From positions 1-6,834 of the IMG/VR virus record IMGVR_UViG_3300045988_013754: a stretch of DNA of 6,834 bases; one strand, 5' to 3'. A program made the position numbers and the translations under genes. This document shows positions 2,687 to 3,310 of the stretch, piece after piece; the stretch's first letter is position 1; each line of letters starts with the position of its first letter. This stretch comes from a virus. The notes under the pieces were generated by a model. It was not told where the DNA came from, made no database searches, and saw only the letters and a program-made list of their open reading frames with translations.

Positions 2687-3310
2687 CCTCCACTGTGACC
2701 TCGCGATACCGACTCGCGAGTCGGACACTACGTGTCCTCCCGGGAATAAACTTTTGTTCATTTGCTCGTCTAGCTCGGTCACGCCAACGCACAATGGATT
2801 CTTCGAATCCAGTGGGATGGGGGGTGTCACTTTTGCATAGTAAGGACAAGAGGGTTGAATCGATGAAGGTAACATCGATTCCCTTCGGGCAAAAGTGTAG
2901 GCTTCACTAAATCCTCCGTGCACACGGCTTCGCCAAACAACGTTTAAAGGATGACAAATCCTACGGACCGGAACAGTAAAGAAATTCTTAACGGCTTCTA
3001 AGGAAGCCTAAATTCCTTTCCTGCTCCTTTTGTCTTTTATTATCCGGCCTGTGGCCGGCGCTCCGCTTGTAGACCATTCGGTCTGTTCCGGGCGCAGCAT
3101 CGCGCCCTACACGGAACCTAACGTGACTGAACATGACGTAATGGATGTTTACGGGTCAGCTTCGCTGACGGCATGAGACGTGGTTAACACAAAGCAAAGA
3201 AAGAGCGCCGCAAGAGTAAGACACTATACTCAAGGGCGCTAGGATGTTTACCGGATTCCGAGACTCACTTCGTTCGCTCTCTCACTCGGTTAATGGTGCC
3301 TTCGGCAGTA
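2687..3310 (-). ncRNA. Large GC-rich, ORF-free, multi-hairpin element of unknown family. It is a candidate structured ncRNA and/or an ssDNA-folded site. Strand assignment is tentative.
   Basis: No ORF of 60 aa or more in any frame across 2924-3380; the three short ORFs over 2601-2923 overlap each other and coincide with hairpins.

Hand-counted G+C is 37/60 (3061-3120) and 32/60 (2701-2760). Flanks give 12/60 (3661-3720) and 23/60 (3421-3480).

At least 14 local perfect stems:
- 2701-2706/2714-2719
- 2723-2737
- 2795-2811
- 2857-2881 (9 bp)
- 2881-2889
- 2926-2934
- 2948-2962
- 2993-3008
- 3044-3058 (6 GC pairs)
- 3071-3084
- 3085-3117 (5+6 bp with a bulge)
- 3137-3153
- 3155-3169
- 3204-3240 (6+5 bp)
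- 3297-3307

A possible closing helix is 2695-2700/2777-2782. The - strand is chosen because all genes, and hence the expected transcription, are on that strand. Confidence 0.5.

Follow-up and report, generated by a model that had tools for sequence, protein, structure and literature searches.

A conserved three-way junction within a strand-specific array of mini-hairpins as a candidate complementary-strand origin of gut microviruses

We analysed a window of 6,834 nucleotides (nt), positions 1 to 6,834 of the IMG/VR virus record IMGVR_UViG_3300045988_013754, which is a complete circular microvirus genome carrying a structured non-coding block of about 630 nt between a small open reading frame (ORF) and the genes that precede and include Rep. 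We propose, with a probability of roughly 0.45, that this block is a folded replication signal in the single-stranded DNA (ssDNA) of the virion, most likely the complementary-strand origin. A role of some kind at the DNA level is considered likely. All recognisable genes lie on the - strand and Microviridae package the strand of mRNA sense, so the - strand of the window is the virion strand. To our knowledge, the virion strand is the only strand that is ever single-stranded in Microviridae. Coordinates of all features are given in Table 1.

The first distinctive feature of the block is its set of hairpins. The original prediction, made from the sequence alone, described six hairpins with C:G-closed GNA triloops on the virion strand, two of them with the heptamer GCGAAGC, and six copies of CTTCG on the + strand, and all of these were found (CTTCG at 2801, 2883, 2928, 3160, 3268 and 3300). 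Five copies of the pentamer sit at a hairpin apex, as claimed, but the sixth (3268-3272), which had been placed off an apex, marks an apex as well when relatives are considered. The corresponding hairpin, H2, is weak in the window and well formed in relatives (CGGAC-GAA/GTA-GTCCG, CGAAC-GGA-GTTCG). Counting perfect stems of at least three pairs with a 3-nt G-N-A loop and 5'C:G3' closure, we found seven such c-GNA-g hairpins on the - strand of 2690-3320 and none on the + strand, whereas 2000 dinucleotide-preserving shuffles gave 0.22 on average and at most 4. The other 6083 nt of the window contained one on the - strand and none on the + strand. Comparison with homologues revealed three further loops of the same class, namely the H2 apex, P0 and AGACC-GAAT-GGTCT. 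The block also differs from the rest of the genome in GC content (50.2% vs 38.2%), and its fold z-scores on the - strand are -6.9 with DNA and -7.0 with RNA parameters, the RNA fold of the + strand giving -3.3. Dulem, bajarodmic and Peromfec microviruses have homologous blocks in the corresponding location; blastn detected the block in nine deposited microvirus genomes, with position and orientation unchanged and each time in an unannotated gap of 450-1000 nt.

Second, the block contains a conserved core, a three-way junction of 94 positions. A search of 65 loci, including 30 genomes fetched via Rep similarity, with a covariance model of the core (R1) yielded 62 core copies, some of them in viruses whose Rep is 28-40% identical to that of the window. 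About 30 further copies came from pattern scans of viral and metagenome contigs, every carrier contig being of microvirus-genome size. In an alignment of 53 distinct core sequences, 97.4% of the cells form standard pairs, 13 of the 21 pairs have changes on both sides, and the covariation score is 0.45 compared with 0.14 after shuffling, none of 500 shuffles reaching the observed value; sliding the structure by 1-3 columns lowers pairing to 29-45%. These pairing, covariation, shuffle and slide results show a genuine core structure under strong selection, and no other sequence of these genomes is as well conserved as the core. The covarying pairs include all eight of P3, the two outer of the three in P2 and both in P0. 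The inner six pairs of P1 are 100% Watson-Crick in the 53 sequences, with a compensated variant TGAGTTTG/CAAACTCA, and the seven interior pairs of P3 are without wobble. The word GCAAAAGTGACA is the only one of at least 10 bases common to 14 of 15 diverse genomes of the lineage.

The loops of the core vary within narrow limits. In P2 the closing C:G pair is kept in 53/53 sequences, the first loop base is G in 52/53 and the loop has the form G..A in 50/53. The loops are GAA (30 sequences), GGTA (6), GGA (4), GTA (3), GAAT (2) and GATA (2), with GTTA, GTAA, GAAA, GCA, GCAA and ATTTT found once each. P0 occurs as GCGAAGC, GCGTAGC, GCGGAGC, ATGAAAT, ACGAAGT and GTGAAAC, so that its two pairs take the combinations GC..GC, AT..AT, AC..GT and GT..AC. 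A coding explanation for the block was excluded because the P2 loop changes in length by 1 nt; ORFs across the block have no family matches, and close relatives differ by 1-nt loop indels.

The placement of the fold on the virion strand, as had been suggested, agrees with the comparison of homologues in several ways. All 62 core copies run in the same sense as the Rep and other genes. The G and A of the loops are kept and N takes all four bases while the stems covary, instead of the loops drifting freely. The core alignment contains 37 G:T pairs on the virion strand but four A:C pairs, which are those that would wobble on the opposite strand, and this asymmetry points to the - strand. In twelve diverse homologues, c-GNA-g hairpins number 42 on the virion strand vs 2 on the other, including stretches that cannot be aligned to the window; with G..A tetraloops included, the counts within -700/+400 nt of the core in 28 genomes are 72 vs 3. 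A reading of the CTTCG sites as RNA cUUCGg or UNCG tetraloops of the + strand was ruled out by register, covariation and wobble asymmetry. The original prediction had also rejected that reading, and rightly, as the register with a continuous stem fails at five of the six sites. Its statement that the closing pair itself fails at five did not hold: the UUCG reading has a c..g closing pair at two sites (2883 and 3300), although the next pair fails at 3300. A compensatory change of the outer P2 pair from C:G to T:A contradicts the cUUCGg register and supports the triloop register.

Third, the block is located between transcription units. The Bacteroidota promoter consensus TTTG-N17-23-TAnnTTTG was searched in its exact form, and the full matches in the genome are two on the virion-sense strand, one on either side of the block, with none on the other strand. 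Of the 17 homologues examined, nine also have the full motif, 114-136 nt downstream of the core start, and six of these nine are from distant clades. In the relatives L002 and L003, the sole terminator-like site, an intrinsic terminator, immediately follows the upstream small gene and borders H1 on its 5' side. With this terminator 5' in L002 and L003 and the promoter 3' in the window and homologues, the block falls between transcription units. A scan of the window for sigma-70 promoters and terminators was uninformative, in contrast to the custom Bacteroidota motif. The core itself lies 180-1000 nt upstream of Rep and directly upstream of the promoter of the Rep operon.

As an RNA of the same sense has the identical sequence, the question of DNA or RNA rests on indirect evidence, and this evidence is consistent. 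We infer that the folded molecule is DNA because of the loop repertoire, the 2-bp stems and the position between terminator and promoter. The loops in homologues include GAA, GGA, GTA, GCA, GAAA, GTAA, GCAA, GATA, GGTA, GTTA and GAAT: for example, H1 has GAA, GCA or GTA, H2 has GAA, GTA or GGA in every variant, H4 keeps GAA on four stems, and the hairpin at 2737-2723 has GTA or GAAA. According to a 2026 review of mini-hairpin DNA, GNA alone among all 64 triloops forms a mini-hairpin, the tetraloops GBAA, GABA, GTTA and even GAAB are tolerated, and the stem beside the loop must be GC-GC or CC-GG (5'C:G3' closure), since CG-CG and GG-CC fail (PMC13037366). The same review reports that r(GCGAAAGC) melts at 39 C vs 76.5 C for the DNA form, and that mini-hairpins bind the single-stranded DNA-binding protein (SSB) poorly (PMC13037366). 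Together with C:G closure, the observed loops correspond to this DNA repertoire, except GGTA, which is of the GNNA type and not in the table of the review, and the single ATTTT. A loop with G first and A last (GNA, GNNA or GAAB) is present in all six hairpins first described, in TCC-GTA-GGA, H2 and P0, and in one GAAT hairpin. In four of the window hairpins both inner pairs are G/C (GCGAAGC twice, CCGAAGG twice), and in the others the second pair is A:T.

The block could instead be a gene-sense structured RNA, either a non-coding RNA or a long untranslated region read through from the upstream promoter, with the junction as a protein- or ligand-binding fold. Such an RNA would be in line with the difference between the RNA fold z-scores of the two strands, the strong covariation, the G:U-compatible pairs on this strand only, and the high GC content in an AT-rich genome, which is a classic sign of non-coding RNA; some P2 loops are GNRA (GAAA, GTAA, GCAA), and the window has no convincing terminator between ORF 3656-3381 and the block. 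However, the apical loops are mostly triloops, and the P2 tetraloops are mostly GNYA or GAAT (9/12 of those with G..A being GNYA rather than GNRA), which are not stable RNA motifs but loops of DNA mini-hairpins. The 630-nt element of the window is free of GNRA and UNCG tetraloops on stems of four or more pairs. The GNA-capped 2-bp stem of P0 covaries, which is hard to explain for RNA, and inside P1, P2 and P3 all pairs (100%) are Watson-Crick although these helices covary extensively. Rfam 15, applied to the entire window (E<=1), gave no match in 2640-3380; the only match in the window was weak and terminator-like (ncr1575, 3760-3868, E=0.36). With the terminator 5' of the block in relatives and the promoter 3' of the core in many genomes also standing against it, an RNA element is regarded as unlikely.

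Compared with known systems, the block shares features with several ssDNA replication signals. The original prediction linked mini-hairpins to origin regions of ssDNA phages, and this link is correct: it is stated in the review, which describes GCGAAAGC at the G4 primase site, GCGTTAGC in St-1 and alpha3, CCGAAGG in RSF1010 ssiA and GCGGAGC in the hairpin promoters of N4 (PMC13037366). The G4 record shows the link too, with CGGCGAAAGCCG lying on the virion strand within its annotated primer site (3970-3997). By analogy, the closest in kind would be the primase-dependent origins from which G4, St-1 and alpha3 (Microviridae, Bullavirinae) start their complementary strands: they are intergenic, consist of folded ssDNA of the virion strand and have a C:G-closed GNNA mini-hairpin, whose loops GTTA and GAAA are also found at P2. 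The block has the intergenic virion-strand hairpins with a mini-hairpin that characterise the G4 type. On the other hand, G4 has three simple hairpins in about 135 nt, compared with a 94-nt three-way junction and up to about ten mini-hairpins over 630 nt here, and its host is E. coli as opposed to the probable Bacteroidota host. The Ff phages (M13/f1) likewise carry one non-coding block of about 500 nt with consecutive virion-strand hairpins and cis-acting replication signals, which adjoins the Rep (gpII) gene and has c-GNA-g-capped hairpins (ACGCGCAGCGT at 5532-5542 and CACGTAGTG at 5716-5724 in M13), and Rep of the window has an ORF2/G2P-type domain. The (-) origin of M13, however, mimics a sigma-70 promoter, and none of the hairpins of the block was found to contain a paired Bacteroidota motif, searched as the exact consensus only. 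A packaging hairpin is likewise present in M13; microviruses are not known to need one. When R1 was compared with G4, the only matches had E>2 and none was at the origin (St-1 and alpha3 were outside this search), and no homology with M13 was found.

The hairpins themselves resemble the DNA mini-hairpin motif d(GCGNAGC)/d(GCGNNAGC) of Hirao and co-workers in loop repertoire and obligatory 5'C:G3' closure, with the exact heptamers GCGAAGC and CCGAAGG each found twice in the window and all four N of GNA in homologues. Several copies differ from the motif in having A:T or T:G as the second or closing pair, which would be less stable. RSF1010 ssiA and N4 have single hairpins, in contrast to the strand-specific array under selection across a virus lineage described here. 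The single-strand origins of rolling-circle plasmids (ssoA, ssoU) are long, structured and orientation-dependent, lie near the Rep origin, and are mostly unconserved except for short motifs recognised by host enzymes, the defining motifs being RS-B and CS-6 (TAGCGT). The block is similar in being a long, structured, orientation-dependent region near Rep, though in different hosts. The CS-6 word TAGCGT appears at P0 in only some homologues (TTAGCGTAGCC), where it varies to TAGTGA, TAGCGA and TAGCGG, as expected of a GNA loop.

Alternatively, the core could be the viral-strand (+) origin, at which Rep, an HUH endonuclease, would nick and religate in the joining strand or beside GCAAAAGTGACA. The mini-hairpins would then aid extrusion of the junction from supercoiled replicative-form DNA, and the GTAAACATCC repeats of module 1 would be Rep-binding iterons; in a variant of this idea, both origins lie together in the core, as in the Ff intergenic region. 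An origin upstream of rep is the usual layout of rolling-circle plasmids and of CRESS viruses, and the core is positioned in this way, directly before the Rep-operon promoter and 5' of a gene whose product carries an HUH domain of the ORF2/G2P type. In addition, GCAAAAGTGACA is better conserved than any other word of the genome, and both GTAAACATCC repeats change together in L003. In the joining strand, CTYG followed by TCC recalls known nick sites (CTTG/ATA in phiX174 and pC194) and CTCTTGTTCC at the M13 gpII site, but the likeness is short and may be chance. The c-GNA-g hairpins of N4 can extrude from duplex DNA, as Dai et al. reportedly described in 1997. However, the core is almost unchanged across Reps that have diverged to 28-40% identity, which fits a host factor better than a co-evolving Rep; a variable, strand-asymmetric hairpin array is typical of single-strand origins and not of nick sites, and the iteron-like repeats are confined to one sub-lineage. 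The (+) origin is a rather improbable explanation, but it is the main rival of the complementary-strand origin.

We favour a complementary-strand origin, for which the following mechanism can be proposed. After entry of the ssDNA, SSB of the host would coat the genome, and the GC-rich block would stay folded through its C:G-closed GNA/GNNA loops, the class to which DNA mini-hairpins owe their exceptional stability and weak binding of SSB. The 94-nt junction, with its invariant unpaired bases and GCAAAAGTGACA, would be the site recognised by the priming machinery, candidates for which are a primase, a PriA-type primosome or RNA polymerase, and complementary-strand (stage I) synthesis would start there. 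The surrounding mini-hairpins, whose number varies between lineages, may serve as accessory clamps, holding the site open and making it resistant to nucleases. No primase-like domain was found in Rep or the small ORFs using PHROGs and Pfam, the HUH domain being the sole match.

Several observations weigh against this proposal. The core is not homologous to the origins of G4 or M13, and it was not possible to assign a primase start motif. The core adjoins the Rep-operon promoter, and the conservation of its invariant word exceeds the needs of a structural clamp; either feature would fit a Rep (+) origin too. Distant clades keep the core with one or two mini-hairpins only; the large array is therefore not essential and is a lineage-specific elaboration. 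The window does not have the clear upstream terminator of its relatives. Covariation is unable to separate DNA from same-sense RNA, and G:T pairs occupy 3.3% of the core cells, mostly at helix ends; at one pair of the hairpin 3153-3137, 14 sequences have G:C and 7 have G:T. Folding of both strands with DNA energy parameters, a comparison proposed with the original prediction, gave nearly equal values (-114.4 vs -112.3 kcal/mol) and did not discriminate between them.

The original prediction also raised a folded ssDNA recombination site like the attP of CTX, used for integration by XerCD of the host. The only precedent is a general one, as dif sites serve some microviruses for integration and CTX employs a forked hairpin. 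Across 185,579 bacterial and archaeal species, each represented by one genome, a scan for the core pattern gave 109 matches, all of which failed the stem test or lacked the motif, so that no integrated copy was detected. Bacterial genomes and larger phage contigs that had come up as carriers were chance pattern matches without the P1 stem. All true core copies are on microvirus-genome-sized contigs, and no integrase or dif-like feature was noticed, although no search was aimed at a dif-like motif in the phage. An attP function is thus very improbable, and the data give no support to a prophage or general bacterial element.

Gut microviruses are among the most abundant mammalian phages. To the best of our knowledge, no cis-acting replication signals are known for them, and the mapped origins are limited to those of phiX174, G4 and their relatives, which are phages of E. 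coli. That mini-hairpins occur at ssDNA origins is already known; in the literature searched, we found no earlier description of this junction or of a strand-specific array of about ten hairpins in Microviridae. The element is a concrete, conserved candidate origin for a large uncultured lineage, can be useful for genome rebooting and engineering, and provides independent natural confirmation of selection on DNA mini-hairpins at ssDNA replication signals. Loop repertoire, closing pair, strand asymmetry and 2-bp stems together form a comparative criterion for whether a conserved fold acts as DNA or RNA. A wider and speculative interpretation, which we hold to be improbable, is that selection maintains a DNA-specific structural code of C:G-closed GNA/GNNA loops on stems down to 2 bp, that the junction is a natural ssDNA aptamer recruiting a priming or replication factor of Bacteroidota and possibly serving as both (-) and (+) origin, and that the expandable array shields the incoming ssDNA from SSB, nucleases or ssDNA-sensing defences. 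If this is true, strand-asymmetric enrichment of mini-hairpin loops would be a general computational test for distinguishing a functional ssDNA fold from an RNA fold.

Table 1 Features of the window, listed along the virion strand (hairpin sequences in virion sense)
Feature	Position	Strand	Remarks
Major capsid protein F	6790-5411	-	
DNA pilot protein	4995-3796	-	
Second Bacteroidota-type promoter motif	3680-3709	-	Upstream of ORF 3656-3381
Structured non-coding block	2690-3320	-	Between ORF 3656-3381 and the promoter-like site and ORFs preceding Rep
Module 1	3320-3136	-	H1, long-range helix around H2, H3, H4, two GTAAACATCC repeats
H1	3307-3297	-	TGCC-GAA-GGCA
Long-range helix ACCG/CGGT enclosing H2	3250-3290	-	H2 apex AC-GAA-GT at 3273-3267
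Direct repeat, copy 1	3242-3251	-	GTAAACATCC; nearly invariant in 21 aligned sequences
H4	3169-3155	-	GTCAGC-GAA-GCTGAC
Direct repeat, copy 2	3143-3152	-	GTAAACATCC; within hairpin CGTAA-ACATCCA-TTACG (3153-3137)
Module 2, variable hairpin insert	2911-3135	-	About 225 nt; many relatives without insert
Module 2 hairpin	3084-3071	-	AGACC-GAAT-GGTCT
Module 2 hairpin	2967-2959	-	TCC-GTA-GGA; seventh perfect c-GNA-g hairpin
Module 2 hairpin	2934-2926	-	GGC-GAA-GCC
Module 3	2910-2795	-	Conserved core and one further hairpin
Conserved core, three-way junction	2819-2910	-	94 positions; P0, P1, P2, P3 and 22-nt unpaired joining strand
P0, 2-bp mini-hairpin	2901-2907	-	GT-GAA-GC in window (2907-2901), GC-GNA-GC in relatives
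P1, junction closing helix	2828-2897	-	+ strand 2828-2835 (CACTTTTG) with 2890-2897 (CAAAAGTG)
P2	2889-2881	-	CCC-GAA-GGG; contains CCGAAGG, heptamer of RSF1010 ssiA
P3, 8-bp hairpin	2858-2880	-	AATCGATG-TTACCTT-CATCGATT
Unpaired joining strand	2836-2857	-	22 nt; conserved CTYGTCC and TATG columns
3' arm of P1 and flank	2825-2836	-	GCAAAAGTGACA
Module 3 hairpin	2811-2795	-	TGGATTC-GAA-GAATCCA
Hairpin 3' of module 3	2737-2723	-	GGACAC-GTA-GTGTCC
Bacteroidota-type promoter motif	2609-2639	-	TTTG-N19-TAnnTTTG; just 3' of element, upstream of small ORF and Rep
Rep	2378-777	-	533 aa; ORF2/G2P-type HUH domain

The block is modular, with modules 1, 2 and 3 following each other 5' to 3' on the virion strand (Table 1). 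Module 2 is shared with many relatives, but it is absent from Dulem virus 265 and the relatives L018, L021 and L042 and partial in L009, and the element grows and shrinks by whole hairpin modules. Using RNAalifold on a MAFFT alignment of module 1, the structure was recovered in part (H1 and H2 were misaligned), and the hairpins were extracted singly instead. Homologues of H1 are TGTCC-GAA/GCA/GTA-GGACA, TGCC-GTA-GGCA and TGTGC-GAA-GCACA. In the ACCG/CGGT helix around H2, pairs swap between CG/GC and GC/CG in 10/21 sequences, and the inner pair changes from C:G to A:T in 8. The H4 stem varies as GTCAAC/GTTGAC, GTCAATC/GATTGAC and GTCAGAT/GTCTGAC. The hairpin at 2795-2811 has the homologue TGAATTC-GAA-GAATTCA with a double change, and that at 2723-2737 is GGACAC-GAAA-GTGTCC in two homologues. 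The two GTAAACATCC copies are about 100 nt apart, each immediately 3' of a helix, and both copies read GTAAACATCT in L003; they may be protein-binding repeats (iterons). The joining strand of the core contains CTCTTGTCC, a sequence similar, possibly by chance, to CTCTTGTTCC from the region of the M13 (+) origin that gpII binds (5790-5799 of that record, L290). A 12.8-kb viral contig (L022) has two versions of the core (5891-5982 and 12651-12745), with P2 loops GAA and GAAT, and probably joins two distinct microviruses as a chimera or concatemer.

In the rest of the genome, an exact direct repeat of 119 nt at the ends of the window (1-119 = 6716-6834) indicates a circular genome written with an overlap, the unit being about 6715 nt. 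The nearest database relatives are the uncultured faecal microviruses Dulem virus 265 and 266, bajarodmic viruses and Peromfec viruses. Residues 20-290 of Rep, approximately, match profiles of replication initiators, and the C-terminal 240 or so residues have no recognisable domain. No tRNA or tmRNA was found in the window. Start codons are without Shine-Dalgarno sequences, and because of this and the two Bacteroidota promoter matches upstream of ORFs, the host is probably a Bacteroidota bacterium. The 91-aa ORF at 3381-3656 corresponds to 1969-2244 of Dulem virus 265 (L001), where its GenBank name is 'replication initiator protein'; it has no Pfam or PHROG match, and the name looks like annotation carry-over. 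Directly after the pilot-protein gene, a hairpin CCTTCCGG-TTTATAG-CCGGAAGG followed by GTTTTTC (3795-3760, - strand) is likely to be an intrinsic terminator.

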